DNA from: a virus
Taxonomy: Duplodnaviria > Heunggongvirae > Uroviricota > Caudoviricetes
Length of the DNA stretch: 31,378 nt
Direction: 5' to 3' (one strand)
IMG/VR virus record: IMGVR_UViG_2648501787_000011
Span: 1-31,378 of that record
The notes below the pieces were generated by a model. It saw nothing but the letters and a program-made list of their open reading frames with translations. It was not told the DNA's origin and ran no database searches. Shown here piece after piece: positions 568 through 31,378 of this stretch (position 1 is the first letter of the stretch; every line of letters starts with the position of its first letter). The position numbers and the translations under genes were made by a program.

Positions 568-590
568 AGCGGCTCTCCTTTTATTTTATG

Positions 591-8277: not shown

Positions 8278-8278
8278 G

Positions 8279-8635: not shown

Positions 8636-8644
8636 GCGGCCCCC

Positions 8645-10120: not shown

Positions 10121-10305
10121 TATTTTTTCCCTCTGGTTTTGTTGTTATTTTTCGGAAGTGTGGTTATTTCCACATCTCCCTCGGCTTCACGGCGCAGCCA
10201 GTAAGCGCAGACATCGAGACGTTCCCCTTCCGGGGATAAATGCGCGCCATCCGGTTTACGGACACGAACGCTTTCCCGCGCTGGCTTAATCAGTTTCTGT
10301 TCCAT
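10120..10305 (-). CDS. Small hypothetical protein between gp38-like gene and sheath gene
   Basis: About 61 aa from an internal Met (MEQKLIK); its stop overlaps the sheath start codon; track ORF start at 10320 overlaps the upstream gene. Confidence 0.35.
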   Translation of the reverse strand: MEQKLIKPARESVRVRKPDGAHLSPEGERLDVCAYWLRREAEGDVEITTLPKNNNKTRGKK

Positions 10306-11439: not shown

Positions 11440-11873
11440 AGCACCCCTTTCAGGTTGTTACGGGTGAACAGCCGGGCATTGGCACCCACCACAATGATCT
11501 TCCCGTGGTCGGTTTCTGCCGGGGTGGCATACGTCGGCAGACCAAGGTCACGGGTGCCGTTCGCCATCTCACGCAGGGTTTTAATGGCGTCGTCGTAGCG
11601 TTTCTGGATCAGCTCCGTGATTTGATTGTCACGCTCTGATAACCAGTAAAACGCCAGCGATACCGCCACGCGTTGCAGCGGGCGCGGGATTTCCGTCACT
11701 CCCAGCGGCAGCGGGTAGCGGCGGGACAGAAACGAATCAATTTCCGCTTCGGCATCACTGATGGCCTGACGGATTTTGTCTTCATCCAGTTCGTTGGTTT
11801 CCCGGTTAATCGCCATGTTCCAGACAAGATTGCCGTCCGCGCGTAACAGGTCTTCCTGCGTGATATACCCCAT
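11436..11873 (-). CDS. Head completion protein, Mu gp36 (J)-like
   Basis: 145 aa; position after gp35-like ORF. Confidence 0.55.
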   Translation of the reverse strand: MGYITQEDLLRADGNLVWNMAINRETNELDEDKIRQAISDAEAEIDSFLSRRYPLPLGVTEIPRPLQRVAVSLAFYWLSERDNQITELIQKRYDDAIKTLREMANGTRDLGLPTYATPAETDHGKIIVVGANARLFTRNNLKGVL

Positions 11874-13165: not shown

Positions 13166-14127
13166 CAGTTATTCTCCTGTTTTGGTTTAGCGGCGAGGAA
13201 CTCTTCCCCGGTAATACCCATGCTGCGGCACATCGCCAGTTCGGCGTCGGTCAGTGTCTGCGCGGGTTTATCCTTGCCCTGGCTGGGCTTGTCGTTGTTC
13301 ACCAGCGGCTGTGCACCTCTGGTGTACTCCGCAAACTGTTTGCGGCCTTCTTCCGTACGGCAGGTAGCAAGGAACATGTCACGGTTTGCCGGGGCCACTT
13401 TTCCGGCTTCGATGGCCGCATCCACAAGCGCTTCTGCTTCCTTAGCTTCCAGTTGCTGAAGGCGTTGTTCTGCGGTTTCGGCACGGTTCAGTGCCAGATT
13501 GTGGGTTTCCACCGGCACAAACTTCGTCAGATCAGGTGTCTGTGCGCGGTTCAGCGCCACCTGTTCGTTCTCCTGAAGTTGTTTAATGGCGGCCACGGTA
13601 TCGTCCACCGTGGCGGATTCAGCCAGCCCAAGCAGGCCGGTGATTTGCACAGGTACTGTCATCGGGTTTTTCTCCGTATTCAGTGCAGGAAAATCCAGGT
13701 TAGGTTTGTTGGTCAGCCCGACGCTGGACAGGCGTGTCACCGCACCGTCCGCGTCAAAGAAAAACGCCGGGCTGTAATAGCGGTAGCGGCGCTCGCTCAG
13801 CATCCACCGGGCGGACTCACTCCAGACAACACGGCCTTCAATGGTGCTGCTGTCCGTCACCCGCAGTTCCTCCACCCAGCCATACGCCGGAGCATCTTCA
13901 CCCCGCGGGCCTTTAATTTCGGTGGCGTGTTCAATGTCCACCGGAATTTTGATGTCGGACGAACGGGCAACCACCTCATGTGGATTGCGGTTAATCCACG
14001 TCCGGCCATCGCGCCCGGTGAACTCACCCGCAGGGACGAGTTCAAGCCATTCCGGCAGTTGAGCGGGTGTCAGCTCAGTGATGGGTTCTGGCAGGGAAAA
14101 ACACAGCGCCAGCAGTTCCGGTTGCAT
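13165..14127 (-). CDS. Head maturation protease with nested C-terminal scaffold, Mu gp32/Z (I)-like
   Basis: 320 aa; C-terminal half is coiled-coil rich (LQQLEAKEAEALVDAAIEAG); internal Met near EKNPMTVPVQI could start a nested scaffold as in Mu. Confidence 0.75.
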   Translation of the reverse strand: MQPELLALCFSLPEPITELTPAQLPEWLELVPAGEFTGRDGRTWINRNPHEVVARSSDIKIPVDIEHATEIKGPRGEDAPAYGWVEELRVTDSSTIEGRVVWSESARWMLSERRYRYYSPAFFFDADGAVTRLSSVGLTNKPNLDFPALNTEKNPMTVPVQITGLLGLAESATVDDTVAAIKQLQENEQVALNRAQTPDLTKFVPVETHNLALNRAETAEQRLQQLEAKEAEALVDAAIEAGKVAPANRDMFLATCRTEEGRKQFAEYTRGAQPLVNNDKPSQGKDKPAQTLTDAELAMCRSMGITGEEFLAAKPKQENN

Positions 14128-14176
14128 GTCAGTCTCCGTCGTTTGGGGTTACTGACGGTCAGTATGCGGAAGGCAG

Positions 14177-14200
14177 AAAAAAAGCCGGATTTACCGGCTT
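14177..14200 (-). terminator. Rho-independent terminator (minus strand) between F and I
   Basis: Minus strand reads AAGCCGG-TAAAT-CCGGCTT followed by seven T. Identical 27-mer recurs at 21738-21761. Confidence 0.6.
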
Positions 14201-14341
14201 CACTGAAAACGGGAAGAATACCCCCTTCAAAACCCCTTCAAAAACGCCACAGCGCCTTCAAAAACGTCAGAATGCACATTCACGCCATCAGAATAAAAAA
14301 CGCGTTTCTGATGCGTTTCAGGGGGATTTATGGCGGGAGGG

Positions 14342-15106
14342 TTACTCACTGTCAAAACGGGCCTGTTTTGTCGCCAGCTGGCGCGCCAGCGCCTGCTCAC
14401 GGTTTATGCCGGGATTGTAGTTCCAGCCCGGATCAATCCCTTCCGGCACATCTTCCTCTTCGCCCGTGCGTTTGTTCACCCAGCGGACAGTTCTGATTTC
14501 CGGCGCTTCGGTGTGAATGGTGCCCTGTGCCGCCAGTTGCGCATATTCACCACGGCTGACCTGACGGATGGTGCATTTGCAGCCCCAGCCGTTAGGGGCA
14601 AAATGCGTCTGCCAGAACGGATGATCTACCGGCAGACACAGACGCGCCCATTTCACATGCTCCGCCCGGTGCTCGCGGGATGGCCCCAGCTCGTAAATCA
14701 GATACGGCATGGCCCGTTTTGTCCGCTGAATGCGTTCCCACTGGCCCGCTGCGCGGGCGGTGCGCATGTTGGTATCAAAAATCGTGCGGAGGCGGCGGTC
14801 GCTGCCCAGCTGTACGGTGCGCGTTTCTCCTGTCAGCGGATCATCCATCTCCTGTACGCCCCACCATCCGCGTTTTATCAGCAGCGGTTGCAGCGCCTCC
14901 CGGAACTCACTGAACGTCTGCCCGCTTTGCAGGGCGTCTTCCACAAGGGCTTTCACATCCGACAACAAATCCAGTTGCAGCATTTTTGCCACGGTGAAGC
15001 TGTTCCGGTGTTCTTCCCGCCACACATCCCGGTAATCAAAACCGGGGCGCAGCTTCTTCGCCTTCAGCCACGCCAGCGCCTCTTTCGGGATGAGGGTTTC
15101 ACGCAT
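14342..15106 (-). CDS. Head morphogenesis protein, Mu gp30 (F)-like
   Basis: Follows portal. Start proposed at ATG 15106 (GGGAGA 8 nt upstream, 8-nt overlap with portal stop) rather than track start 15163. Confidence 0.7.
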   Translation of the reverse strand: MRETLIPKEALAWLKAKKLRPGFDYRDVWREEHRNSFTVAKMLQLDLLSDVKALVEDALQSGQTFSEFREALQPLLIKRGWWGVQEMDDPLTGETRTVQLGSDRRLRTIFDTNMRTARAAGQWERIQRTKRAMPYLIYELGPSREHRAEHVKWARLCLPVDHPFWQTHFAPNGWGCKCTIRQVSRGEYAQLAAQGTIHTEAPEIRTVRWVNKRTGEEEDVPEGIDPGWNYNPGINREQALARQLATKQARFDSE

Positions 15107-16670: not shown

Positions 16671-18202
16671 AGTAAACCTCCCTCATTTTTCAGGCCGCGT
16701 GTCAGTTTCATCTGGCGGCGCGTGTTGCCTTCTTCCGGTTTCGCCGGGCGGTTCAGGCGGTGCAGCTCGTAACGGTGGCAGTCATCCTTACTGGCAAGGA
16801 AGCCCAGGAAAATGGCCACAGCGGCGTCGCCGTGACGCTTGCGGCCATCACTACCTTTAGTACGGGCATCGTCAATGCCGGGAACACCACGCAGTAACTG
16901 AATGGCCCCGAGGTCATTGATCACGTCTTCATGCTTCGGAAGGATCAGCTCATCATCTTCAAACGCTGCACGGAAACGGGGCATGTTTTCGCGGTAGAAC
17001 GCCACGGACAGCATCACCTGTTCCACCTCATCGCCGTACCGCTCCGCCGCCTGTTCTGCCAGATACTGACCATTCCCCCGTGCATCCATTTTGATACCGT
17101 CACGACGGGGCAGACGATCGCAAAGCCAGAACAGCACCTGCTCCTGCTGTTTAAACGGCACATTGCCAAGCTCAACCAGGAACGGCACCTCGCGGGTGGT
17201 GTCATCGTTCACCGTCACAGGGGCCAGTACGGTCAGGTCACCCGAACGCGCAAAGTCTTCCCCCAGACAGTGGCGCAGGTTCTTCGGGAGTTTTTCCAGC
17301 TCGGGGCGCACCACCGTTTCCAGCCATTCCCGGATATCTGCCCGGCGCTGGCTTTCCGTCAGTGCGTTAAATTCCGGTGTGCCGGTAAAGCGCAACACTT
17401 TCCCGGTGCCACGGGCCGCACGTTCACGCAGTGAGCGGGGGATATACGTGCCGCCGCCGTTTTTCGGGACGCAGTAGTATTCCTCCAGGGCGTCTTCGCG
17501 GGTGGCGGTATTTCTCAGCAGACCTTCTTTCCATTCCGCCTCGGCCTCCGGTGACCACACCATGCCGCGCACCTGACAGATACGCCGGTACAGCCCGTCA
17601 TTGCAGGCGTCATCCAGCGTGATGGTGTGAATGCGGTAATCCCGTTTTCCTGCGCGGCTTTCCTGAATCAGCTGGTTAAACAGGTTGTCCACGCCGTCAT
17701 GGGTGGAAATAAGGCGAATTTTGCCGCCCCATGTTTTCAGCGGCAGCACCGCCTTCAGCAGCTCGTCCAGTTTTTCATGGAACGCGGCCTCGTCGATGGT
17801 GACATTCCCCTGCATCCCGCGAATGTTGCTCGGGTTGCTGGACAGTGCCTTGACCTTAAAACCGCTGGCGAAGTACACGACGAACGTCAGAATGTCCTTG
17901 TCTTCGTCGGTGATCACTTCCTCGCAGATTTCTTCCGCTGCCGCATTAAACGCTTTCGCCCACATCGCCACGGCGTCGATAAATTCGCGGGCCATCTCCT
18001 TATTCGAACCGATATAAAAGTGATCGCGCCCGCCGAATTCCTTCTTCAGCGATGCCGTCAGTGCCGCATCTGCCGCCTCCGCCCAGGTTAAACCGGTACG
18101 GCGGGATTTCTCGGCAATTTTCAGGTCGGCATCATCCGCCACCCAGCGTTTCTGATACGGCAGCAGAACATCGGATTCACTGAACGTGTTCATCTGTGTC
18201 AT
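16667..18202 (-). CDS. Terminase large subunit, Mu gp28-like
   Basis: 511 aa; position between small-terminase-like and portal genes. Confidence 0.8.
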   Translation of the reverse strand: MTQMNTFSESDVLLPYQKRWVADDADLKIAEKSRRTGLTWAEAADAALTASLKKEFGGRDHFYIGSNKEMAREFIDAVAMWAKAFNAAAEEICEEVITDEDKDILTFVVYFASGFKVKALSSNPSNIRGMQGNVTIDEAAFHEKLDELLKAVLPLKTWGGKIRLISTHDGVDNLFNQLIQESRAGKRDYRIHTITLDDACNDGLYRRICQVRGMVWSPEAEAEWKEGLLRNTATREDALEEYYCVPKNGGGTYIPRSLRERAARGTGKVLRFTGTPEFNALTESQRRADIREWLETVVRPELEKLPKNLRHCLGEDFARSGDLTVLAPVTVNDDTTREVPFLVELGNVPFKQQEQVLFWLCDRLPRRDGIKMDARGNGQYLAEQAAERYGDEVEQVMLSVAFYRENMPRFRAAFEDDELILPKHEDVINDLGAIQLLRGVPGIDDARTKGSDGRKRHGDAAVAIFLGFLASKDDCHRYELHRLNRPAKPEEGNTRRQMKLTRGLKNEGGLL

Positions 18203-18780
18203 GCGCTAATCCCCAGAAGTTCACGTTTGATGGTGTCAGCCGCACCACCTGACAGACCGCCCGTTCTGACCAGTTCTTCGGTTTTCTCTGCCATCTCCTG
18301 CGCAAACGCATCGCGGATCGCTTTCTCGCGTTTATGGCTGGTCATGGCTGCCGCTTCCAGACGCTGGGCAACCAGCGCCAGTTGGCCCAGCGCCTTCGGT
18401 GCAACAGGTTTGTCGTCTTCTGCCATCGACATGGACGTTTCAAAGGCCAGCGTTTTTACAAACTCCATCAGCAGCTTGCCGACGTCTGATGTTGGCGCGG
18501 AACCCAGCTTTGCCGCCCAGACCTCGGCCATCTCGCGGGAGGCGCGGATTTTGGCCCCGACTTTTTCCATACGGCTGGCATAGCGGTTTAAGCCCGTCCG
18601 GCTTAACTGCATCTCTTCCGGCAGGTTGTGTTCGTCAATCAGGGCGTTGATGGCTTCGCGGATTTCTTCCTGCGTGTGCCGCTTTTCCCGCAGCATCTGA
18701 TGTAACTGCTCCCGGATGCTGTCCGGAAGTAAATCCACTTTGGAAAGACGGCCACGGGTGGGGCGTTGTTCATTTTCCAT
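18199..18780 (-). CDS. Probable terminase small subunit, Mu gp27-like
   Basis: 193 aa; immediately upstream of and overlapping the large terminase. Confidence 0.6.
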   Translation of the reverse strand: MENEQRPTRGRLSKVDLLPDSIREQLHQMLREKRHTQEEIREAINALIDEHNLPEEMQLSRTGLNRYASRMEKVGAKIRASREMAEVWAAKLGSAPTSDVGKLLMEFVKTLAFETSMSMAEDDKPVAPKALGQLALVAQRLEAAAMTSHKREKAIRDAFAQEMAEKTEELVRTGGLSGGAADTIKRELLGISA

Positions 18781-19057
18781 CTTCAGACCTCTGCGTTTTC
18801 AGACCGGCGTATATTTCTTCACGAACGGACTGAATATCCTTACTTAACAGCTTCCACAGCCGCGCACATGCCGGTGATGATCGCAGGGCGCGTTTCATGG
18901 GGGTATCCGGTGCATCCGGGTTCCAGGGCTTTCCTGTCTGTTTTTCGTATGCACGGACAATGGCGTTTTGCTCAATATCTGCCAGCACAAGGCAGTACGC
19001 CAGTTGCCGCACGACGGCCCGTTCTCCGCGACTTAACGGCTTCAGTTTTCGGGCCAT
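18770..19057 (-). CDS. Hypothetical protein (late region)
   Basis: 95 aa ORF tightly packed between neighbours. Confidence 0.45.
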   Translation of the reverse strand: MARKLKPLSRGERAVVRQLAYCLVLADIEQNAIVRAYEKQTGKPWNPDAPDTPMKRALRSSPACARLWKLLSKDIQSVREEIYAGLKTQRSEDGK

Positions 19058-19059
19058 GC

Positions 19060-19353
19060 TCAGTCCCTCGCACGGGGTTTTTTAACGCCCGGAACGCTGG
19101 ACAGGCCGTTTGCCACATCCTCGCCGCTGCCGGTGATTTCAGCCACGTAACAGCCGCCCACATCAGACAGACGAACCAGCCCCTGCTCGCGAAGCCATGC
19201 AAGCTGAGTGCGCACCACATCACGGGATACCTTATGACCGTAAGCCTGAAGGCAGGTCTGCAACACGGATTCATTCGCGCTGTCGCCACAGTCCAGCAGG
19301 GAACGCAGCAACACCAGACGACGGTCTTCAGTGAGGATCTCTTTCATCGCCAT
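19060..19353 (-). CDS. Hypothetical protein, possible winged-helix DNA-binding
   Basis: 97 aa; segment KVSRDVVRTQLAWLREQGLV resembles a recognition helix/wing; function unknown. Confidence 0.45.
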   Translation of the reverse strand: MAMKEILTEDRRLVLLRSLLDCGDSANESVLQTCLQAYGHKVSRDVVRTQLAWLREQGLVRLSDVGGCYVAEITGSGEDVANGLSSVPGVKKPRARD

Positions 19354-19658
19354 TAATTTTTTTCCTTTAACTCGTTCTCTAATAACAAATCGCTGATGCG
19401 GGATACCTGGCGGATGGATGGCCCCAGTTCTTTGATTTCTCCCCGCAGATTGCTGATATCCAGTTGCAGGCGGTGGAACTCATCACGGTCGGGTAAATGG
19501 TGTACCTGGCTTTCCACCACCGACACGCGGGAACGGAGTGAATCAAACTCTTCGCGTTTGACGTAGGTTTTCGCCAGAATCAACTGAAGCAGGTTTATTC
19601 CTGTCATCAGCAATGCCCACAGAATGGGCCAGTTGGCTCTGATCATTTCCCAGGACAC
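19353..19658 (-). CDS. Membrane-anchored coiled-coil protein (spanin/releasin-like candidate)
   Basis: 101 aa; N-terminal hydrophobic helix (WPILWALLMTGINLLQLIL) followed by coiled-coil; in lysis cluster. Confidence 0.5.
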   Translation of the reverse strand: MSWEMIRANWPILWALLMTGINLLQLILAKTYVKREEFDSLRSRVSVVESQVHHLPDRDEFHRLQLDISNLRGEIKELGPSIRQVSRISDLLLENELKEKN

Positions 19659-19870
19659 GTTTTCCTCCTGCGTTCCCGAATATGCTGACAGTCAATACAG
19701 GTCACCACATCCGGCAGCGCCGCAAGGCGTTGTGCCGGAATAACGTTCCCACAGTCATTGCAGCAGCCCCGACTATGGGGCGCTTCTTTTGTCCGCGTCT
19801 GCCAGGCGTTAACGACGCTCTGACGTTCGTTCATAACCACTTCACTGATGCGGTCGATTTCGTCGGTCAT
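19643..19870 (-). CDS. TraR/DksA-family C4 zinc-finger protein
   Basis: 75 aa with CCNDCGNVIP...CIDCQ (CxxC-N17-CxxC) motif characteristic of TraR/DksA-type zinc fingers. Confidence 0.6.
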   Translation of the reverse strand: MTDEIDRISEVVMNERQSVVNAWQTRTKEAPHSRGCCNDCGNVIPAQRLAALPDVVTCIDCQHIRERRRKTCPGK

Positions 19871-20475
19871 TTCGGCCCCGCAGACATTTTGTGACGGCTC
19901 GATTTGCTGTACCGGGCAAAGCCGTCCATGGTTCTTACTCCGAGATAGCCCAGCGCCGGGGTAAGCAACATCAGCGTGATATCCCAGTCCGGTGACGGCA
20001 TATGCAGTGTGATACCTCTGGCACCGGCAATGGCTCCGGCAATCTGGCCACAGGAGAGCAACAGCACATAGGTCAGACTGCTGTAACAGGAAAGACGGGC
20101 CAGCAGCGGGCGCGTCTGGCGCACATAGCTGTCCGCAGCGTTGTCACCATTGCGGATGGTTTCCTGCTGTTCGTGATGCGCGGCCTGCTCGTCAGCCAGC
20201 ACCAGCTTCTGCCGTTCCACCTCAAGCTGTTGTAACTGGACTTTCAGCGTTTCCAGTTGCATCAGTTGCTCCGGTGACAACGCCGTCAGTTGTTGTTCCA
20301 GAATGCGTTGCTGTTCGGTAACCGGCAGGCTTTCCCGGACGCTTTCCACCATACCGGCCACCGAGTCAGCGGCGGCAGATGTGCTACCACCAAACCAGCG
20401 CCCGACGGAACGAATCAGCCCCGGCCCGGCTTTCAGCAGAACAGAGGCGATGCCTGAAAGGGTTAACGGATCCAT
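19867..20475 (-). CDS. Hypothetical coiled-coil protein with C-terminal transmembrane segments (lysis-associated candidate)
   Basis: 202 aa; Q/L-rich coiled-coil centre; two hydrophobic helices near C-terminus. Confidence 0.5.
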   Translation of the reverse strand: MDPLTLSGIASVLLKAGPGLIRSVGRWFGGSTSAAADSVAGMVESVRESLPVTEQQRILEQQLTALSPEQLMQLETLKVQLQQLEVERQKLVLADEQAAHHEQQETIRNGDNAADSYVRQTRPLLARLSCYSSLTYVLLLSCGQIAGAIAGARGITLHMPSPDWDITLMLLTPALGYLGVRTMDGFARYSKSSRHKMSAGPK

Positions 20476-20873
20476 GAATCCCCCTTATGAAAACTGCGCT
20501 GATGTTTATAAAGTGCCGCGCAAAAGATACCGCCCAGCCAGAACGCCAGCTGATAAGGCTCCTTCAGATAAAGAAGGCCGAATGTCAGCATGAAAAGACC
20601 AACGGCCCAGACCACCCATGACCACACGACAATTCGAAGGGAGGCGGCCCGGAAACGCCTTTTGGGTTGCAGGCGATAAGGTACGTTGCCCAGCGGGAAA
20701 CTGTGAATCAGGCAGAGTGTCGCGCCGTATGCCAGCACCATGACCGCAAACGCCCGCCATCCGGCAAAACAGCTTGCCAGAAAAAGTACTGCCGACAGTC
20801 CCAGAAACGACCACTGGCACAACATAAAGCGGGAGTAAATAACGCGAACAAAAAGACTATTCATTCTGTGCAT
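20463..20873 (-). CDS. Polytopic membrane protein (holin-like candidate)
   Basis: About 136 aa from ATG 20873 (AAGGA 8 nt upstream) with 3-4 predicted TM helices. Track ORF extends to 21044 but that part overlaps the preceding ORF and is Arg/Trp-rich. Confidence 0.5.
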   Translation of the reverse strand: MHRMNSLFVRVIYSRFMLCQWSFLGLSAVLFLASCFAGWRAFAVMVLAYGATLCLIHSFPLGNVPYRLQPKRRFRAASLRIVVWSWVVWAVGLFMLTFGLLYLKEPYQLAFWLGGIFCAALYKHQRSFHKGDSWIR

Positions 20874-21084
20874 TGAGTTTTTCCTTGTACTTCTGGCACT
20901 GCCAGAAAATGTCCCGTGTATCCACGGAGTTCCAGCCACGCATGTAGTAGCTGGCGTGTGTACCGTCATGACCGGTATAGTCCACCGGCTCTGGCGGCGG
21001 ACCTCCGGCCATACGATGTAAAACCTCCTGACGCAGGCGGTCACGCCGCCCGGCTCTCAGCGAGGCATCCCAGCCTTTACCCAT
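20857..21084 (-). CDS. Hypothetical protein immediately downstream of endolysin
   Basis: 75 aa; start ~2 nt after the endolysin stop; no TM segment or lipobox. Confidence 0.4.
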   Translation of the reverse strand: MGKGWDASLRAGRRDRLRQEVLHRMAGGPPPEPVDYTGHDGTHASYYMRGWNSVDTRDIFWQCQKYKEKLNAQNE

Positions 21085-21085
21085 A

Positions 21086-21682
21086 TCACCCCCGCGTGGC
21101 GGACATGATGCCTAAAGGGGTATCGATGATTTCCAGACAGGCGTCGGTCAGCTTTTCCATGCGGTTAAACCAGCCGTTCAGGTATTTACCCTGGGCGGGT
21201 TTTGACTTGATGATGTCGGCATAAAAGCGGGAACGACGGACAATGCAGCGGGCCAGCAACCAGTCCGGGGTGGACAGACTCACGGCCTTACGGGTACGCG
21301 GGCCGATGATGCCGTCAGCATCCACATCAGCGGCTTCCTGCAAAATCCTGATAGCTTTTTTAACGCCATGCTGAACGGCTGCATCGAACACAAACATCGC
21401 CACGCCATCAGGCCACTGGTCACATCCGGCAGGCAGCCAGTAATCGCGCCAGTAAATCTGCGCGACCTGTTCGCGGGTTAAATCCCTGATGCGGGTATCC
21501 GGTTTACCGTCGCCGCTGACATCGGTTTTGCCGTCAATCACACCGTCGCGGCGGTCAGAAATGCCGTATTTGGTTTCGCCGCCACGGTCAGTGGGGTCAT
21601 TGACATAGACGCCTTCGATATCGGGACGCAGAATAAAATTCAGCGCATGTTCAAAGGCCGGGGAGAATTTCAGATTTTCCAT
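21086..21682 (-). CDS. Endolysin, GH108-type N-terminal domain plus peptidoglycan-binding domain
   Basis: 198 aa; N-terminal motif IEGVYVNDPTDRGGETKYGISD matches the GH108 signature EGGY-N...D-GG-T-YGI; no N-terminal hydrophobic SAR segment; AGGTG RBS 7 nt upstream. Confidence 0.75.
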   Translation of the reverse strand: MENLKFSPAFEHALNFILRPDIEGVYVNDPTDRGGETKYGISDRRDGVIDGKTDVSGDGKPDTRIRDLTREQVAQIYWRDYWLPAGCDQWPDGVAMFVFDAAVQHGVKKAIRILQEAADVDADGIIGPRTRKAVSLSTPDWLLARCIVRRSRFYADIIKSKPAQGKYLNGWFNRMEKLTDACLEIIDTPLGIMSATRG

Positions 21683-21737
21683 AAAAGCACCTGTGAAGCA
21701 GATTTAAACGTGGTCTGTTTCATGGTGCCGGAGGCAT

Positions 21738-21761
21738 AAAAAAAGCCGGATTTACCGGCTT
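21738..21761 (-). terminator. Rho-independent terminator (minus strand) between secreted-protein gene and lys
   Basis: Same AAGCCGG-TAAAT-CCGGCTT hairpin plus T7 tract as at 14177-14200 (27-nt identity). Confidence 0.6.
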
Positions 21762-21781
21762 CATTGAATTAAAAAAGATGA

Positions 21782-22261
21782 CTACTCATCACCTTTGATG
21801 GAGCAATCTATTACCATATCGTTACCCATCTTGAGAAATTTGGTTTGCATGAGAAAACCCTGTATCACATCAGTTAACCCATACCCTTCAACTTTTGTAG
21901 CTGAAACTACCATGTCAATAATTCGTTTCTGCTGTTTCTCTGTTAGTTCGCCAATTGCTGACTCCGCAACTCGCGAGCATGCCACAAAAGAAGACAACAC
22001 ACCTGAAGGATTGTTTTCATAATCCTTCACTGTCGTCGTTGAGCTGACGACTTTATTGTTGATCGTAAATACCCCGAATTTACTGTGGGCAGTTTCTGTT
22101 CCACCGTTCTTAATTGAATCGCCCCCTTTAAGAGGCTTCCAGCTATTTAGTGCAATGAGGTCTTTTTCTGTAAGACGTTTTTTGATGACATCTTCAGCTG
22201 GCAGTTTTGCCGCATTCGCGCAAAATACGCCCAGTAAAAGTATAAGAGGAAAGTATTTCAT
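21782..22261 (-). CDS. AT-rich secreted/periplasmic protein of unknown function (moron candidate)
   Basis: 159 aa with clear signal peptide MKYFPLILLLGVFCANA; lower GC than flanking phage genes; ATG overlaps the mor stop (ATGA). Confidence 0.65.
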   Translation of the reverse strand: MKYFPLILLLGVFCANAAKLPAEDVIKKRLTEKDLIALNSWKPLKGGDSIKNGGTETAHSKFGVFTINNKVVSSTTTVKDYENNPSGVLSSFVACSRVAESAIGELTEKQQKRIIDMVVSATKVEGYGLTDVIQGFLMQTKFLKMGNDMVIDCSIKGDE

Positions 22262-22659
22262 GACTCATCCTTAAATAGTTGCATTTGATATTTTTCACGC
22301 TCCAGTCGGCGCATTCTTTTGATGGCCTGATATACCGTTTTGTATGTCACTTTGTAACGCTGCACCAGCTCCGCTACGTTTTTCCCATCAAAATCATGCC
22401 AGATGCGCATGTCTCTGATAAGATTTTCCAGTATTTTCCCTTTCGGAACATATACCTGAATCCCACCGATATGATTGCAAATCGCCACTACCAGCTCAAG
22501 GGAGTGGGCAGGGTTAACTCCAAGCCTTATCAGCTCCTGTCGCAACAGAGCATTCAGCTCAGCCAGTAAAGATGGGAATCCCGATTTTTCCTGAACATCA
22601 TCAAAATATTCAAGGATACTGTCGTCCTGATAATCACCAAATAAATCTAGCTCTTTCAT
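22258..22659 (-). CDS. mor: Mor/C-family transcriptional activator (Mor by position)
   Basis: 133 aa; C-terminal HTH GKNVAELVQRYKVTYKTVYQAIKRMRR and N-terminal LFGDYQDD resemble Mu Mor; ATGA overlap with upstream gemA-like gene. Confidence 0.75.
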   Translation of the reverse strand: MKELDLFGDYQDDSILEYFDDVQEKSGFPSLLAELNALLRQELIRLGVNPAHSLELVVAICNHIGGIQVYVPKGKILENLIRDMRIWHDFDGKNVAELVQRYKVTYKTVYQAIKRMRRLEREKYQMQLFKDES

Positions 22660-23207
22660 AGAACTATTCTCCCGCTGTTTCTGGCGCGGGCATACGCACT
22701 GGTCAGTGCATCATATCCGCGCAGTTCCCGCCCGGTTTCGCTCACAGGTAAAGGCACGCCATGTCGGGCAAAGGCTTCCCGAATGCAGCGCATATGCCAC
22801 TGTTTGAGCGTTTCGAGCACAACCTGCAACGATTCCCCATGACACCAGGCAAGCGTGGAAACACCCTGACCGCCATTACGTCTGGCCGTCAGGCGTTCAA
22901 CGTATTTGTCCAGCGCGACGTCGCTGATATCGGAGACGAAACCATCAAGAAACATCTGCTGCCAGATTTTATAAATCTTCTCGCGCGGTGTGACATACCC
23001 CTTAAAGCGACGGCGGGGATGTTTTTTCTGCTTCTTAAAACCGCGCTCTTTCATGGCATTGAGCACCTGTTCCAGTTGTGTAACGGACAGCTCGCGGCAA
23101 CTGGTCTTGCCCGTGCACTGCACCAGAAAGGCGCGGTAAGTGTCATCGTCGAGGTGCAACTCCCGGCGGGCAACATGAATTAATTTAATCAGGGATGTGC
23201 GGCTCAT
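22656..23207 (-). CDS. gemA: GemA-like protein (Mu gp16)
   Basis: 183 aa; directly upstream of mor with overlapping stop/start, as gemA-mor in Mu. Confidence 0.6.
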   Translation of the reverse strand: MSRTSLIKLIHVARRELHLDDDTYRAFLVQCTGKTSCRELSVTQLEQVLNAMKERGFKKQKKHPRRRFKGYVTPREKIYKIWQQMFLDGFVSDISDVALDKYVERLTARRNGGQGVSTLAWCHGESLQVVLETLKQWHMRCIREAFARHGVPLPVSETGRELRGYDALTSAYARARNSGRIVL

Positions 23208-23520
23208 TATGTCCCCCGGATTTAAAAATTAATTCAGTGTTGAATAGCTCTTTACTCATTCGCTGTAGCACATCAAGGGCGGCAACTGCCGCCACTTTAT
23301 CCTGGCTGGCAATGATTCCCCGCAACTCTTCGATAATCCATGCAGGACTTAATGATTCAGCAATCATCATGCGCTTTTCTGAAATTAAATTTTCTCTGGC
23401 CTGCTCAAAGTGCTGGTATACAACATTATCCAGAAAATAATTTACATCTTGTTCTGACATACCACTGGAAATTAAGGTTGCAGCCATTAAATCAGCATCA
23501 GTAATCATCTGTATTTTCAT
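23185..23520 (-). CDS. AT-rich hypothetical protein (early accessory region)
   Basis: About 111 aa from ATG 23520 (GAGG 9 nt upstream); AT-rich relative to neighbouring phage genes; no recognisable motif. Confidence 0.45.
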   Translation of the reverse strand: MKIQMITDADLMAATLISSGMSEQDVNYFLDNVVYQHFEQARENLISEKRMMIAESLSPAWIIEELRGIIASQDKVAAVAALDVLQRMSKELFNTELIFKSGGHNEPHIPD

Positions 23521-23695
23521 TTCGTAATACCTCTTCGCAATAAAAGATTTCACCGGGATAACGTTTTTGTATGCGCTCCATCACCTGCATACATGCCTGC
23601 TCTGTGGGCCAGATTTTTTCTGTTACCGGGATAGCATCACAGGCATCATTCCCGCAGGTGCCAACCAGCAGGACAAAGCCAATTGACTTAATCAT
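23498..23695 (-). CDS. Small Cys-containing signal-peptide protein (possible lipoprotein / exclusion-type protein)
   Basis: About 65 aa from ATG 23695 (MIKSIGFVLLVGTCGNDACD...); hydrophobic N-terminus followed by Cys; four Cys in total. Confidence 0.4.
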   Translation of the reverse strand: MIKSIGFVLLVGTCGNDACDAIPVTEKIWPTEQACMQVMERIQKRYPGEIFYCEEVLRNENTDDY

Positions 23696-24227
23696 GCTCA
23701 CTGGCTTCCTGTGTTGCCGCCGGAACCGGTGAATAATCAAGAATGAGATAGCGCATGACGTGGTCGGTGATATTCCAGCCACTGGAGCCACAAATAAAAC
23801 GTCCCAGCCGGATATCGATATACGCCATCACAAAACGGGGCATTCCCTGTTTGCACATTTCATCGCCCACTTCTGCAACGATGTAAACCGACTCGCAGGT
23901 CAGTACGCCTGTCGCAAATTCTTTTGCCAGTGCCGGAATGGCATTGCCTTCCAGCCAGGGCAAAGAGCGGCGGAACGCACACCATTGAGCATCATCAACA
24001 GCGGGGTGCTCCGTTGTGTTTCGTCTTACCGGCGGCGTCGGGCGAGGGCGCGGAACATCATAAAACCCGTTGCATTCTGTCAGCATTCCGGCATCAACCG
24101 CATCACGCAGGAAATACACCATTGAAGAAGGTGGCATATTCATTTTTTCCGCCAGAACGCCACAGGTCAGACGTCCGTAAGCCCGTAATAATGTACTGAC
24201 ACCGTTCAGAACTTTTGCATCAACCAT
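23688..24227 (-). CDS. Hypothetical early protein
   Basis: 179 aa ORF between gam and the AT-rich ORFs; Cys-rich; no recognised domain. Confidence 0.5.
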   Translation of the reverse strand: MVDAKVLNGVSTLLRAYGRLTCGVLAEKMNMPPSSMVYFLRDAVDAGMLTECNGFYDVPRPRPTPPVRRNTTEHPAVDDAQWCAFRRSLPWLEGNAIPALAKEFATGVLTCESVYIVAEVGDEMCKQGMPRFVMAYIDIRLGRFICGSSGWNITDHVMRYLILDYSPVPAATQEASEHD

Positions 24228-24325
24228 TTTTTATTCCTGAGTAATCTGTTTCAGGCGCGAGCAATCCCCTGACGCATCGCGCCATAATTAAAAGAAAGTG
24301 AATTAATTAAATATTCGTGGTGGTA

Positions 24326-24850
24326 TTAAATACCGGCTTCCTGTTCAAACGGAATAATAGAAAAATCTTCAATGCCCGATTTAACTGTAATTCCGGCAAC
24401 ACCTGCGACCGCTTTCGGTTCCAGTAAAATCGCTTCCTTGTTGATTTCCTGTTTCGTGCGAATAAAACGTTGCAGGCCAAGACGCTCCAGCGTTTCCATC
24501 ACCGCATCCACTCCGCGAATACTTACCGATGGTGGGCGCTGACGCCATTGCACATCACCGGTAACGAGGTTAGCACTTTTCACTTTGCCGCCGTTCGTCA
24601 GCTCGTCACGGTTCGCTTCACACCATCCCTGAACGCCTTTTGAAAGGGTTTCAATACTGGTTTTAAGGGGTGCAATCTGTGAGGCGTATTTCTCCGTAAT
24701 CTCAGCGATAGCGTCATTCATTTCCGTTTCAAGTCGTGCCGCTTCGCGTTGCAGGTCACCAATCCGGCGGATATCACATACCACGGCATCGCGGGATTGC
24801 GGAACATAAGTCGCTGCGGCGTTCCTGATTCGTTTTGCTGACTTAGCCAT
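24326..24850 (-). CDS. gam: Host-nuclease inhibitor Gam (Ku-like DNA-end-binding protein)
   Basis: 174 aa, same length as Mu Gam; sequence recognised as Mu Gam-like. Confidence 0.85.
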   Translation of the reverse strand: MAKSAKRIRNAAATYVPQSRDAVVCDIRRIGDLQREAARLETEMNDAIAEITEKYASQIAPLKTSIETLSKGVQGWCEANRDELTNGGKVKSANLVTGDVQWRQRPPSVSIRGVDAVMETLERLGLQRFIRTKQEINKEAILLEPKAVAGVAGITVKSGIEDFSIIPFEQEAGI

Positions 24851-24870
24851 ATAAATAAAGCTCCTGTTAA

Positions 24871-25170
24871 TTAATATTCGCTGTATACAATACTGGATAC
24901 AGCACGATTGCTTAATTCCATCTTTTTGGCTATCACATGAATAGCCAGCCCTTCTTTATAAAGTTCACGACACAAATATTTGTCGTGCTCACTGATTCGG
25001 TATGCACACAACGATATTCCGTGCCTTCTGGCATGTGCCCGGAGGGCGGTTGTGGCAACGTTCAGTTTTTTCGCCATTTCTTCAACGGTCATTTTTCCGA
25101 CACTGGCTTCGATAAATTCCCGGTCTTCGCGTGACCAGCGTTTACGATTACACATCATTCCGGTCACCAC
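24871..25170 (-). CDS. Hypothetical early protein with helix-turn-helix-like segments
   Basis: 99 aa; segments MTVEEMAKKLNVATTALRAHARRHG and LAIHVIAKKMELSNRAVSSIVY look HTH-like. Confidence 0.45.
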   Translation of the reverse strand: MVTGMMCNRKRWSREDREFIEASVGKMTVEEMAKKLNVATTALRAHARRHGISLCAYRISEHDKYLCRELYKEGLAIHVIAKKMELSNRAVSSIVYSEY

Positions 25171-25590
25171 TCAGTACAACAGGGGTTCGCGCAGTGATGC
25201 CGGAATATGCCGCAACGATAACTGAACTGCTTTCAGGGCAAGGGAAGAATACGCCCCCTGCGTCCAGCCTTTCGCCATTTGCCGGTACTCGCGCCAGATG
25301 TTCTGCCACTGCTCCCGTGCGTCCGGGTCTGACGCGCTGATGTATTCTCGGTCCATGACGTATTCCCATAAATCCACATTGAAAGCATTGCCAAACGTAA
25401 TGGCGCGGAATACCGCCTCTCCGCAATAACGCGCACAAATGCTGTAATGGTCAAATGCAATCAGGTAAGTCTTTTCGCCATACCCCTCAACTTCGCGCGC
25501 GCAAATAAACTCGCGTAAGTCTCCGCCATTGTTATTACGCATTTTGATTCGAATTAATGCCTGGATTTCGTTTCTGATTCTGGCGTTCAT
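25171..25590 (-). CDS. Hypothetical early protein
   Basis: 139 aa ORF adjacent to the next gene start; no recognised motif. Confidence 0.45.
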   Translation of the reverse strand: MNARIRNEIQALIRIKMRNNNGGDLREFICAREVEGYGEKTYLIAFDHYSICARYCGEAVFRAITFGNAFNVDLWEYVMDREYISASDPDAREQWQNIWREYRQMAKGWTQGAYSSLALKAVQLSLRHIPASLREPLLY

Positions 25591-25604
25591 TGTCAGCGCT
25601 CCTT

Positions 25605-25868
25605 TCAGTGACGTGTTCCTTCAACTGTCGTTTTTGTGACACTGCCACCCGTGATGACGCCGTCATTTTTCAGAATTTCAATGGCCTCATGGGTTGACTC
25701 GCAAACAATATCCCGACTTTTTTCCAGAACCAGTAACGCTACCATGCCAGCGAGTGTACATTCATCGCCGTCCAGCTCTGCACTGTGTTCTACGTTAATA
25801 CTGGTACGTAAACGCTGCCCTTTAACTTCAGATGTCGCATTTTTGATTTCGATAATGACTTTTGCCAT
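25605..25868 (-). CDS. Hypothetical early protein
   Basis: About 87 aa from ATG 25868 (GAGGAA 8 nt upstream); track start 25922 overlaps the kil-like ORF. Confidence 0.45.
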   Translation of the reverse strand: MAKVIIEIKNATSEVKGQRLRTSINVEHSAELDGDECTLAGMVALLVLEKSRDIVCESTHEAIEILKNDGVITGGSVTKTTVEGTRH

Positions 25869-25900
25869 TTTGTTATTCCTCACAAATAAATAAGCCGTTA

Positions 25901-26128
25901 TTAACGCCAGATAATCTGACAACCATTAAGACGGGCCGTCCATACTGAACGGGCAACCCCTGATTTATGCTCCATAATCCTGACAGCATTCCTGACAAGC
26001 TCCGGTGGTGGGCAGGTGATTTCAAGCACCGGGCGGGCCACGCCCAGCCAGGATTCGTTGACGTGGCTGCCGCGCTCCTGTAACCAGCTCTTTACTTCCG
26101 TTGCCATTTTGATATTCCGTGACATCAT
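25901..26128 (-). CDS. kil: Kil-like small protein
   Basis: About 75 aa from ATG 26128 (AAGGAG overlapping B stop); position right after B and size match Mu kil. Confidence 0.5.
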
Positions 26129-26141
26129 AATTTCGCTCTCC

Positions 26142-27080
26142 TTACGTGCGCAGCAGGGTTGAAATATCAACGTCCAGGTCTAATTCACGGAAAGCCTGAC
26201 GCAGATAATCTTCATTAACACGTTCACCTTTACCGTGGGCGGTCATGGCAGCAAGGCGCAGCGAGTGGTTCAGGATGCGAAGCGCACCTGGCTTTTGTGC
26301 AATCTGCTGTAATAATTCCCGCTCGTTTTCGCCGGTAATTTGCCAGGCATCCGCAATGGCTTTTACATCATCAATTTTGGTTTTATTGATTGCCGTCCGT
26401 TTGGCAATACGGGAAAACAGGCGGGCAAATTCAACCGTTCTGTTACCACCGGTCATGTTTGAATAAACACGGTGATTCCCCATCAGAACAAGGCCAATAC
26501 GGGCGGACTCCTGTAACAGGCGGAGTTCTTCCAGAACCTCAGCGCCAAGATGATCAGCTTCGTCGATAATGACCAGCCCCTGGGTACCTTCAAGACGGCG
26601 TCGCAAAGCGCGGGAGAGTGGCCCCTTACGGCGTGGTGCGTCATTCATTCCCAGTTCATAAGCCAGTTCAGTCAGGCATTCCAGAACACTGGCACAGGAT
26701 GGGGTAATGGTAATCATCCAGACATTGTTATTGGTGCGACGAAATTCGCGGGCCGCTTCAGTTTTTCCCACACCTGGATTACCGCAGATAACAGAAATAC
26801 TTTCAGTCAGGCTGGCAAAACGCATACTCGTCCAGATTTGGCGTGCTGTTCTGGTTTCCACAAAACGTGGTGGTTCTGGCAGCTCTGCGGCACGGTGATA
26901 GTTCTCCAGCCAGCGTTCCAGCATCTGCGCAACACGTTCATTGTCGCCGTTGTACTTGTTATTCACGAATGCGCTTAACGTTCCTGCGGCCACGCCAGAC
27001 TCGCGTGCAATTTGTGCATAAGTCGCTTTTTCACTTTCTACAAGCGTGCGCAGTCCTGCGCGAATATCGGAAATATTCAT
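26142..27080 (-). CDS. B: Transposition target DNA activator B (AAA+ ATPase MuB)
   Basis: 312 aa; Walker A GNPGVGKT; recognised as near-identical to Mu B along its length. Confidence 0.95.
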
Positions 27081-27118
27081 CTGAATAACCTCGTAATTAA
27101 ATTTTGTTTAAACGTTAA

Positions 27119-29107
27119 TTAAATGGCTTTTTTACGTCTGTTCTGTTCCAGAATATCCAGCGAATGATTCAGATATTCATCACGATCAGTTTCATATTCA
27201 TCATCGGGTTCCTGGTATTTCACCTGCACCGTGTTACCGGAAGGCCGGAAAATACCAACAACCCTTGATTCTGGCGCTGCTGCTTCGGCTATCTGCGGCA
27301 GCAGTTCAGCAACTTCCAGCGCGTCCATTTGCTTCTGCGCCTTAATGGCTGCTTTAGTTGCAGATTTCAGTTGTTTCTGGCGGCGGCGATATTCGCGGCC
27401 TGCCGCAGCATCATTAAATGCAACAGGTGCCAGACATTCCGCTTCACAGATAAACCGACCGTCCAGGGTGTAACAATAAACCGTGCTGTGTAACTGCTGT
27501 GGATCAAACCTGACCACAACTTTTTTCACGCCGGCATTCATTAACGCCATGTTGTAATAAACGTTTTTCGCGCCTTTAAGGGAGCCGCCAACTTTAAGCG
27601 TAAACTCGCCTTTGCGTGAAACGTTCACCGCCTCGGCAGGCAGTAACAGCATCCGTTTTTGTTCTTCGGTTGGCTTACGCACAATCGTTCTGGCGTATTC
27701 ACGCTCGAAAACATCATCAAACGAGAGTTTGCCCCCGCACATTTCTGTTTCACGGCCTGTTCTGGCATTGAACATCGCAACACCTTCAGCAAGGGTTTTC
27801 AGAAACAGCTCTGCATCAACAGCACGGTCGCCATAGTTATCAGGTTTTGCCTGCGGATTTGGCCCCGTATATGCGCCAGCCAGTGCCGGATGCTTATCAA
27901 TGTATTCTTCAAGCCCACCAACACCGAAAGCGCGTTCAACAGGTTTTGCCTGGCCCCAGCCTTTACCGGCAACAACGCTTGTCCAGTGCATTTTTGCGCC
28001 CATCAGTAAAAACAGCCCCTTTGGATCGTCCTCTTTCACTTTAAAGCGGTAACGATTGGGCGCGCCCCCCGTCAGCCATTTATTCGCTGCACCACGGGTG
28101 TTATCAATGGTGATGTGAAAATCTTCCGGGATGCCGTAGCGTGTCACCACATCCATGAATGAGAGGCGAATTGAATCGATGTTCTCGCTTACATCGCAGC
28201 GCCAGCCCAGAATTTTTCGGGTTTTCACATCCTGCCAGAACCATGTTTTCGGGCGGATCACATCACCGTTAAACCAGCGTACAAAGACGTTATGCAGATA
28301 ACCGTCGCCGTTGATCCACTGCATGGCGTCCAGGTGTTCCACAGTTCGCTGCTGTGCCGGTATCAGATGCATCAGTGCATGTTCACCTTCACGGCAGGCA
28401 ACAACCATTGCCTCGTCCAGTTGTTGAATCCGGCGAAAGGCCGTGGCACGGGAGGGAATACTCCAGCCATGCTCGCGGGCTGCCAGTTCCAGACGCTCAT
28501 AACATTTGCGGAAGGCGGGTTTTTCCGGTCGCAGATAATCTGCAATCAGAAACTGCCAGGCATCCTCGTCAAATTCACTTTTGTGAACGTTGCGACGAGA
28601 TGCACCACGTCCATCAACAAGTGCAGCCGCCCAGTCAGGCTTCGCAAACTTCTGTACCTGGTAATACTTGTCCCGCAAAGTGGATGCGCTGACCTGGTAA
28701 TGGCCTGCAACGGTCGCAAATGCCGTTTTCGTTGAAATCCCCTGGTTCAGCATTTCGTCTGCAGCCTGAACCGCAGGCAACCATTTTTCAGCAAGTCTGC
28801 GCTGGGAATCGCTGGCGTTATCCCATTTGCTCCACAGTGCCTCACGATCATAATCATGGGCTTCCAGCGTGGGGCGGGCGATTTCAAAACGGCCCTGGCT
28901 TGTTTCAATTCTCCCTTGTTGCAACAGAATTTCAGCACGTAATGTGACAGGAAATGATTTGATATTGAATTCAAATGATACACCTTTAGTTCCTGCAACC
29001 TGCCTGAACTCCCAGCCTTCTCTTTGTGCCTTACGTGTAATGTTAGTGGCTTGCTTTGGTAAACCTGCCAAACCGAGCAACTCTTTTGCTGTATACCATT
29101 CTTTCAT
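27119..29107 (-). CDS. A: DDE transposase A (MuA), D108-type N-terminal domain
   Basis: 662 aa; from about residue 70 onward recognised as Mu A; first ~65 aa differ from Mu and resemble the c repressor N-terminus in this window. Confidence 0.95.
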
Positions 29108-29114
29108 AGCGCAC

Positions 29115-29336
29115 CTAGTATCGAGACGGCCAAATATCTTGCGGTGTCATTCCCAGTGCATCTGCAATGATTTTCTCCGCTTTCGGATATCTCTTATCCA
29201 AAGCATTTTTTAATGTTGAAGACGAAAGATGATTAGATCTTCCCAATTCAGCTAGTGACATATTGCGTTTTCGTAGCGCTGCAACGATGTCAGCTCTGTG
29301 CCAATCTTGGCTGTTAGTTCTTTTATTCATATGCAT
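29115..29336 (-). CDS. ner: Ner DNA-binding regulator
   Basis: 73 aa (D108 Ner length as I recall it; Mu Ner is 75 aa); conserved DWHRADI..A.L...ELGR and IWPSRY C-terminus; first early gene upstream of A. Confidence 0.9.
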
Positions 29337-29521
29337 TTCATGTAATCCTTTCAGATTCCCCCGTGAGCTACGCTATAAAGTAGCTCACGGCATATCGTGC
29401 AATGTAGTGTGGAATCACTTTCAAATCAATAGTGATTTGAGAGGATTTACCGCAATTTTGCATAACGGCATGATTTTTATATGAATTTATTTTATCTCTA
29501 TTGAAATCACTAGGATTTTAA
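29337..29521. promoter_or_regulatory. Immunity/operator region between ner and c (divergent promoters, Ner and repressor sites)
   Basis: Perfect inverted repeat CCGTGAGCTAC-N8-GTAGCTCACGG at 29361-29390; palindrome TCAAATCA-ATAG-TGATTTGA at 29421-29440; repeated (G)AAATCACT 9-mers at 29411-29419 and 29504-29512; AT-rich stretch at 29470-29500. Confidence 0.7.
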
Positions 29522-30046
29522 ATGATGTCTTTTGAAATCAAAGAATGGTTTAATGCGAAAGAGCTGGAAGGGATGCCTGGTGTACCAAAGTTGGCGACTA
29601 ACATTACCAGGAAAGCTGTGGCGGAAGATTGGGTAAAACGTCAGCGTCACGGTGGGAAAGGTGTCGCTTATGAGTATCACATCAACAGTCTGCCAGAAGA
29701 AACACGCAGGGCCATTAAAGGAGCCTCACTTTCTGATAAACCAGTGCATACATCAATCGCCCATACAGTTGATGAGAGGCTAATTTATGCAATGAGCTTC
29801 TTAACACCAGATGAGCAGGCCGCAGCTGTGGAGATCATTCGTGTAGCAGGGATTAAAGGTCTTATGCCTACAATTGTCAGTAAAGATAAGGCATTAGAGG
29901 CATTAGGGATTACTGTGGAGCAACAGAAAACCCTGCAAACTCTTCAGGCATTACCACCGGAAAAAGTGAGAGAGATTTTGTCTCAGTATGAAGGCAAAGA
30001 ACATAATTTCCCTGTAAGAGAAAACGATGTAAAGAAGGCTGTATAA
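29522..30046 (+). CDS. c: Repressor c (Mu/D108 immunity repressor)
   Basis: 174 aa on opposite strand to early operon, between operator and attL; N-terminus shares a DNA-binding domain with A ([26 protein letters not shown]); C-terminus LPPEKVREILSQYEG...KKAV resembles Mu c. Confidence 0.85.
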   Translation: MMSFEIKEWFNAKELEGMPGVPKLATNITRKAVAEDWVKRQRHGGKGVAYEYHINSLPEETRRAIKGASLSDKPVHTSIAHTVDERLIYAMSFLTPDEQAAAVEIIRVAGIKGLMPTIVSKDKALEALGITVEQQKTLQTLQALPPEKVREILSQYEGKEHNFPVRENDVKKAV

Positions 30047-30179
30047 CAACCAGGTAATGGCTAAGACATAAACTTCACTCCAGGTTATTACATATGTAAG
30101 ATACCCAAACAGTGATGATTGTTTTTGATACACAGCACTTGCTGAAAGCCTGGTTGTTACCGTTTTTGAAGCATTTTTG

Positions 30180-30385
30180 AAGCTGTACTTGAAATGATGC
30201 GTGAAGTAATTGCTTTTCGTGTCTTTAATGAATCAAAAGCTGTTTCCAACAATCTTTCGCGTTTCAAGATGTAACGGCTAAAATCTATCCTACAGGCTTG
30301 CAAGCCCCGCTAAATCTAATCCCGCCAAATCCCGAATAATCCAATGTCCTCCCGGTTTTTTTCGTACTTCACGTGAATCAATACA
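30180..30385 (-). repeat. Mu-type left end (attL) with MuA-binding sites
   Basis: Reverse complement starts TGTATTGATTCACGTGAAGTACGAAAA (L1-like); second site around 30258-30275 contains TGAAACGCGAAAG (L2-like); further CGAAAA repeat inward. Confidence 0.8.
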
Positions 30386-30397
30386 ATGTTCAATTCC

Positions 30398-31378
30398 TTA
30401 CTTACTGATAAGACGGTCAAGGGCGACAGCCGCGATAATTAATCCGCCCATCACCACCAGTTGGTAATAGGTTTGTACCTGCAAAATATTCAGACCGTTG
30501 TTGATGGTGCCGATGATCAACCCGCCAATCACCACAGAGAAAATGCGCCCCTTGCCGCCGAAGAAACTGGTGCCGCCAATGATGGCGCTGGCAATGGCAT
30601 AGGTTTCAAAACCCATACCGGCAAGCGGTTCTGCGGCACCGAGTCGTGCAGTTGAGACGACGCCTGCCAGACCTGCACAAACACCGGAGATGATAAACAC
30701 CACCAGGATGTGGAATTTCACGTCAATCCCGGAATAGAACGCCGAGTTTTTGTTGCCGCCCAGTGCGTAGATGTTGCGCCCGAGCCGCATACGCGTTGTC
30801 AGAAACCAAAGGATGAGCGCGACAATTAGCGAGAAGATAACGGGGACAGGTATCCCAATTACGCTGGCGGCAAAGAAGTTCACGAAGTCAAATGAGAAGC
30901 CGTATACCGAGTTGGCATCGGAGATCACCAGCGTGATCCCACGGAAAATAGCGTTGGTGCCAAGGGTGATAATGAACGGGTGTAGTCCCGTCCAGTTGAC
31001 CAGGCAGCCGTTGATCGCCCCCAGTGCGCCGCCAACCAGTACACCGCCAATCAGCGCCGCGAGAAACGGATCAATACCTGCCAACATCAGTTTAGCGGTC
31101 ACCATACCGGAAAGCGCCAGAATCGCGCCAACCGAAAGGTCGATACCAGCGACCAGGATAGCGAAAAACTCGCCCATGCCGATCAATACCGTCACGGAGC
31201 TTTGCACAAAAATCTGGGTAATATTATTGGTGGTCAGAAAATATTCTGACGACAGCGAACCAAAAATGGCGACGATGATTGCCAGGATAAAAAAGGTGCC
31301 GTATTTATCCCAGAACAGCGCAAAGTTGAACGGTTTCTTCTCGCTCGCTTCGCTTTTTACTCTTGTGGTAAAGCCCAT
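30398..31378 (-). CDS. Host sugar ABC transporter permease (RbsC/AlsC family)
   Basis: 326 aa polytopic membrane protein; start codon is the last 3 nt of the window. Length and family fit a D-allose/ribose-type permease, but the gene name is not verifiable here. Confidence 0.85.
   Translation of the reverse strand: MGFTTRVKSEASEKKPFNFALFWDKYGTFFILAIIVAIFGSLSSEYFLTTNNITQIFVQSSVTVLIGMGEFFAILVAGIDLSVGAILALSGMVTAKLMLAGIDPFLAALIGGVLVGGALGAINGCLVNWTGLHPFIITLGTNAIFRGITLVISDANSVYGFSFDFVNFFAASVIGIPVPVIFSLIVALILWFLTTRMRLGRNIYALGGNKNSAFYSGIDVKFHILVVFIISGVCAGLAGVVSTARLGAAEPLAGMGFETYAIASAIIGGTSFFGGKGRIFSVVIGGLIIGTINNGLNILQVQTYYQLVVMGGLIIAAVALDRLISK

Follow-up and report, generated by a model that had tools for sequence, protein, structure and literature searches.

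At one edge of the DNA analysed here, the sequence of a Mu-type prophage gives way to that of a bacterial sugar permease gene. The stretch of 31,378 nucleotides, which we refer to as the window, belongs to the record IMGVR_UViG_2648501787_000011, and the question raised by this locus is at which base the prophage starts, which host operon it entered, and what its insertion would mean for the gene that used to follow the permease.

The first part of the question could be answered by comparison with known phages. In a megablast search of the phage collection, bases 1-1286 of D108 aligned end to end with window positions 29100-30385, on the reverse strand and with 97.8% identity, and since the alignment stops at D108 base 1, window position 30385 is phage base 1. 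Read downward from there, the prophage begins with TGTATTGATTCACGTGAAGTACGAAAAAAACCGGGAGG..., and in a multiple alignment with the prophage the left ends of both D108 and Mu start exactly at TGTATTG. The two prophage termini have the form 5'-TG...CA-3' and align with the ends of Mu and D108 (left, TGTATTGATTCAC; right, ...GCGCCGCTTCA). The same boundary was recovered from a panel of left junctions in public contigs whose c repressor or transposase A is identical to that of the window: in 16/16 of these junctions, which represent 13 distinct insertion sites with unrelated flanks, the switch from host to phage occurs at the same base, that is, at TGTATTG. The look-up of the c repressor returned 4,190 blocks, from which ten independent junctions were obtained, while the look-up of transposase A was carried out with 10-kb flanks, the als locus being merged into a group of similar places when the flanks were 3 kb. 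The junction is base-exact and independent of chance statistics. An initial annotation, made from the sequence by itself, had put a Mu-type end at 30385 and host DNA from 30386 onward, and the position was borne out by D108 base 1 and by the 16 public junctions, as was the Mu type of the end by the identity with D108 and by three matches to the MuA site followed by c, ner, A and B.

These elements of the left end are arranged much as in D108. The 339 nucleotides next to the terminus are non-coding, given the location of the c stop codon, and contain three predicted MuA binding sites (Table 1). The sites were searched for across the whole window with the consensus used by the D108 annotators, YMYNWRAARYRCGAAAR, and the candidates for L1, L2 and L3 account for 3/6 of the matches in the 31 kb, all three being located in the first 175 bp or so from the left terminus. 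The window-wide count of matches is not above chance, with six or more being found in 14/100 shuffles, so that the support for L1-L3 comes from their canonical positions. Beyond them, the c repressor gene is transcribed toward the left end, convergently with alsC and divergently from the early operon, whereas the early genes ner-A-B (26142-29336, minus strand) are co-directional with the als operon.

On the other side of the junction, positions 30386-31378 match alsC, as annotated by RefSeq, with 100% identity in five complete E. coli genomes and with 95-99% identity in most others. The gene is left unaltered by the insertion, from its ATG, which forms the final three bases of the window, to its stop codon at 30398-30400. 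The 12-base stretch that remains between this stop codon and the phage (30386-30397) reads GGAATTGAACAT on the gene strand, and in strain FHI_NMBU_03, where the site is empty, GGAATTGAACAT continues as GGAATTGAACATGAAAATC, with RefSeq starting alsE at that ATG. In full, the uninterrupted gene strand is ...AGTAAG TAA GGAATTGAAC ATG AAA ATC TCC..., in which the ATG is the annotated start of alsE, and the alsC TAA and the alsE ATG are 10 bases apart in the uninterrupted genomes. Window positions 30387 and 30386 are the A and the T of the alsE start codon, respectively; the phage end falls between T and G, and where the G would follow, the window continues with phage DNA instead. The annotated order in FHI_NMBU_03 is alsR-alsB-alsA-alsC-alsE-alsK-yjcS, where alsE encodes D-allulose-6-phosphate 3-epimerase (231 codons) and alsK is next downstream. 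Gene order, and essentially also the sequence, are shared by the locus studied here and the uninterrupted alsRBACEK loci of FHI_NMBU_03 and K-12 MG1655, the difference being a 33.8-kb prophage and one extra AACAT between alsC and alsE in the former. The initial annotation had read a permease stop codon 12 bp from the junction, followed by what looked like a ribosome-binding site and the first bases of a start codon, and had proposed that the insertion separates a downstream gene of the operon from the permease. All of this was confirmed: the permease is AlsC of the D-allose operon, the bases at the junction supply the first two letters of the alsE ATG, comparison with the uninterrupted homologous locus places alsE downstream of the empty site, and alsC now lies 33.8 kb from alsE-alsK, genes that adjoin it in the listed complete genomes of E. 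coli. As for the limits of the window, they look like a consequence of how it was cut rather than of biology: the alsC ATG at its end (31376-31378) belongs to the overlap of alsC with the 3' end of alsA, and a tail gene of 352 aa is cut midway by position 1. A 34-aa open reading frame that spans the left junction returned no record on look-up.

The right end, which lies beyond window position 1, was sought by a look-up of the gp48-like protein encoded at 591-1565, which led to ten contigs, two of them matching window positions 1-11565 with 0 mismatches. One of the latter, SPKX01000011.1 (GCA_049894145.1, 325 kb), continues through the tail-fibre genes, com and mom up to ...CGTGCGCCGCTTCA, whose terminal TTCA is reached at position 14969 of the retrieved stretch. 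The right junction is ...GCGCCGCTTCA/AACAT/GAAAATC, and reading on, G AAA ATC TCC CCC TCG is alsE, then come alsK and yjcS. A total of 3,404 bases (tail-fibre genes, com, mom and right end) are thereby added to the 30,385 of the window, giving a prophage of 33,789 bp. The left junction was read in a sister draft assembly, in contig SPKU01000010.1 (GCA_049894205.1), which has 0 mismatches to window positions 17119-31378, the identical left junction, and rpiB-alsR-alsB-alsA-alsC upstream of it. By its coordinates the window fits positions 74,570-105,947 of SPKX01000011.1; SPKU01000010.1, which stops 120 nt before window position 1, is excluded as its source. The pentamer AACAT, made up of the final three spacer bases between alsC and alsE plus the A and T with which the alsE ATG begins, is present at both junctions, just as had been predicted from the left end when a 5-bp target duplication was proposed at 30386-30390; the contrary outcome, a right end beside unrelated host DNA with a different pentamer, was not seen, as AACAT and alsE were found there. 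A Mu-type element has integrated here through 5-bp staggered cuts of the target at AACAT, very probably by MuA-catalysed transposition. Neither the left junction nor the predicted right-junction string had an exact match in the viral, metagenome and species-representative genome contig collections.

Table 1. Features of the left prophage end, the early region and the interrupted als locus (window coordinates unless stated otherwise)
Feature	Position	Strand	Remarks
Prophage part in window	1-30385	-	30,385 bases
B, AAA+ protein, 312 aa	26142-27080	-	Pfam PF09077
Transposase A, 662 aa	27119-29107	-	Pfam PF02316, PF09039, PF02914, PF09299 (Mu transposase domain set, DDE)
ner	29115-29336	-	Pfam PF13693
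c repressor, D108-type, 174 aa	29522-30046	+	Stop codon 30044-30046; Pfam PF02316
attL, non-coding left end	30047-30385	-	339 nt; 5'-TGTATTGATTCAC... from 30385
L3-type predicted MuA binding site	30214-30230	-	Phage 156-172; 1 mismatch; D108 annotates the same site at 156-172
L2-type predicted MuA binding site	30254-30270	-	Phage 116-132; 2 mismatches
L1-type predicted MuA binding site	30359-30375	-	Phage 11-27; 0 mismatches; D108 annotates the same site at 11-27
Target-site duplication, left copy	30386-30390	.	ATGTT on plus strand, AACAT on gene strand
alsE ribosome-binding site, orphaned	30394-30399	-	AAGGAA on gene strand; overlaps alsC stop codon; from empty-site sequence and annotation
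alsC, D-allose ABC transporter permease, complete, 326 aa	30398-31378	-	ORF list; RefSeq identity
Target-site duplication, right copy	14970-14974 of the SPKX01000011.1 stretch		AACAT, then G of alsE

We consider it very probable that a full-length Mu/D108-type prophage of about 33.8 kb was inserted in alsRBACEK at AACAT, with a likely polar effect that would amount to a null or near-null mutation of both alsE and alsK. The coding sequence of alsE is not damaged, since the duplication puts AACAT before the G at the right junction, where the gene keeps an intact ATG and its full frame of 231 codons. Its ribosome-binding site and the als promoter, on the other hand, would have been left at the left junction, 33.8 kb from the alsE coding sequence, and the ribosome-binding site would be replaced by the right end of the phage, GCCGCTTCAAAC. 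At the empty site, the computed pairing with the 3' end of 16S rRNA is -6.1 kcal/mol, whereas the bases preceding alsE at the right junction give +0.6 kcal/mol. The prophage would also cut alsE and alsK off from the allose-inducible promoter, and it is from this separation, together with the loss of the ribosome-binding site, that a polar null or near-null of both genes can be expected. It has been reported that alsE is part of the allose-induced operon alsRBACEK and that growth on allose is abolished by knocking out alsE (PMC12216980). A lysogen carrying this insertion is likely to take up allose through AlsBAC, with the transporter still being inducible, and yet to be unable to grow on D-allose. 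It is a small curiosity, and a mildly unusual detail of this insertion, that a target duplication can re-create a start codon and at the same time leave the gene without its ribosome-binding site.

It could be argued that the insertion is functionally silent, with alsE being expressed enough for allose catabolism either by read-through from the right end, in the com-mom direction, or from an unrecognised promoter. The intact start codon and frame of alsE are compatible with this possibility, as is the fact that mom and alsE are transcribed in the same direction. However, the sequence preceding alsE at the right junction offers no ribosome-binding pairing, the terminal 870 nt of the prophage (14100-14969 of the SPKX01000011.1 stretch) showed no promoter-like site facing alsE, and a hairpin is located after mom in the same contig. 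Moreover, lysogens keep mom, a late gene, silent, and strong polarity is a classical property of Mu insertions. For these reasons we regard residual expression of alsE at a sufficient level as unlikely, and a polar effect on alsE and alsK as the preferred explanation.

A different objection is that the two ends might be flanked by host DNA that is not contiguous, as the result of a Mu-mediated deletion or inversion or of a chimeric assembly. Replicative transposition of Mu can rearrange the DNA around it, and the window shows one end only, but nothing specific speaks for such an event here. The left junction is present in three contigs among those read (SPKU01000010.1 and two others with the same neighbours), and beyond the right end, after the same five bases, the locus resumes exactly where it had been broken. 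When the host flanks of SPKU01000010.1 and SPKX01000011.1 are joined with one AACAT kept, the resulting empty site agrees with the intact operon of FHI_NMBU_03 save for 5 mismatches in 6,993 bases, being exact around the insertion site, and the gene order rpiB/alsR-alsB-alsA-alsC-alsE-alsK-yjcS is recovered from the two junction contigs in near-identical sequence. The complementary right junction and this reconstruction exclude a rearranged end or a chimera, to which we assign an extremely low probability. Mu-type virions carry host DNA at both ends, and the bacterial sequence beside the left end could be taken for such a short variable tail of packaged DNA and not for a chromosomal junction. 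This reading has practically no probability: left-end tails of virions measure about 50-150 bp, and it is excluded by the 993 bp of host DNA in the window and the 8.7 kb of contiguous als and rpiB sequence in the 250-kb contig SPKU01000010.1.

With a simple insertion into alsRBACEK as the favored reading, it may be asked whether the host operon affects the prophage in turn. Given that the als operon and ner-A-B are co-directional and that no convincing intrinsic terminator was found between the alsC stop codon and ner, it is conceivable that als transcription reads into the prophage. In the search of 30047-30385, on both strands, the terminator-like signal was limited to a weak 6-bp stem at the c stop codon, and the RNA folds were no better than those of shuffled sequence. 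A read-through transcript would be antisense to c and sense to ner, A and B, and in the extreme case allose-induced transcription would cross the left end and make derepression or transposition of the prophage responsive to a rare sugar, a scenario that we regard as very unlikely. In the same region, just past the c stop codon, an inverted repeat of 9-12 bp, CAACCAGG...CCTGGTTG (30047-30159), brackets about 90 nt and is followed by a T-rich plus strand. It could be a terminator of the c transcript, but its fold is not better than shuffled (z = -1.3).

Concerning the prophage as a whole, the likeness to D108 comprises the 174-aa c repressor, ner, the 662-aa A, the 312-aa B, the MuA sites at phage positions 11-27 and 156-172, and the TG...CA termini. 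The two phages differ in total length (37.2 kb in D108 vs about 33.8 kb here), and any megablast match of this prophage to D108 or Mu is lost from about 7 kb inward. The prophage is a mosaic, in which the left 7 kb or so are D108/Mu-like at 87-98% identity, whereas the rest (window positions 1-23700) has no megablast match with a coverage above 13% in 50,697 phage records. Its late and middle region is 99.6-99.7% identical to prophages in at least 23 complete E. coli genomes. The homologue of gp48 has 324 aa in this prophage vs about 180 aa in Mu. No gin gene was called between the tail-fibre genes and com in SPKX01000011.1, so that the invertible G segment seems to be lacking in this prophage.

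Regarding the choice of target, Mu is known to produce 5-bp target duplications and to have a degenerate preference for 5'-CYSRG, of approximately 7-fold in vivo, which resides in MuA (PMC7350765). The als pentamer agrees with that motif at 2/5 positions on either strand (AACAT/ATGTT) and does not satisfy the preference, while most of the other flanking pentamers in the junction panel fit the central Y-S-R triplet. Because CYSRG is a preference and not a requirement, the misfit of AACAT is no argument against the membership of this phage in the Mu type, and the als site is off-consensus but allowed. The element resembles Mu in its near-random insertion, the 5-bp duplication, the L1-L3 architecture of its end, and the separation of distal operon genes from their promoter; it departs from the classical Mu mutations in being an event in a natural isolate, with the cut inside a start codon and a poor fit to CYSRG.

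The occurrence of near-identical phage at 13 distinct left flanks among the 16 public junctions means that there is no fixed attachment site. In the Logan assembly ERR10982864, a copy of the phage with 0 mismatches over 11.5 kb adjoins a macB-like gene, and in GCA_029423015.1 another with 0 mismatches over 5.6 kb adjoins selO, which suggests very recent transposition, or infection by one phage clone. The als insertion itself is absent from the complete RefSeq genomes of E. coli: among the 5,426 searched, 0/3,412 with a match span the junction. The identical copies elsewhere and this absence point to a recently mobile phage and to a recent, lineage-specific insertion in als. The permease gene alsC is found in 3,383/5,426 of the complete E. 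coli genomes and is missing from 2,043 (about 38%), and the als operon appears to be often lost or disrupted in this species; given its absence from such a share of the genomes, the loss in the lysogen is probably of small consequence. What is described here is a standard Mu-type insertion mutation in a dispensable operon, in line with textbook Mu biology and of little import beyond annotation, where its value is that the boundary of the prophage is fixed to the base, that the earlier call from sequence was accurate, and that a simple phenotype can be predicted for this lineage.

Three further loci came to light during these searches. In strain FG92-1 (NZ_CP142677.1, 4259094-4260170), the sequence corresponding to the 3' portion of alsC is interrupted by some 0.8 kb, and the annotation of the matching region includes an IS1B transposase. 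A related prophage, flanked on either side by ACGAG, occupies the interval from yehQ to yehR in a series of clinical isolates, those of RIVM included; there are 10 further similar places beyond those listed, and this suggests that the Mu-like prophage is clonally inherited. Finally, NZ_AP041814.1 carries the same left end at 1490571-1490872 (99.3% identity over 302 nt), where the sole annotated feature is a gene for a prophage tail-fibre N-terminal domain, and this left end may represent a Mu-type insertion into a resident prophage.
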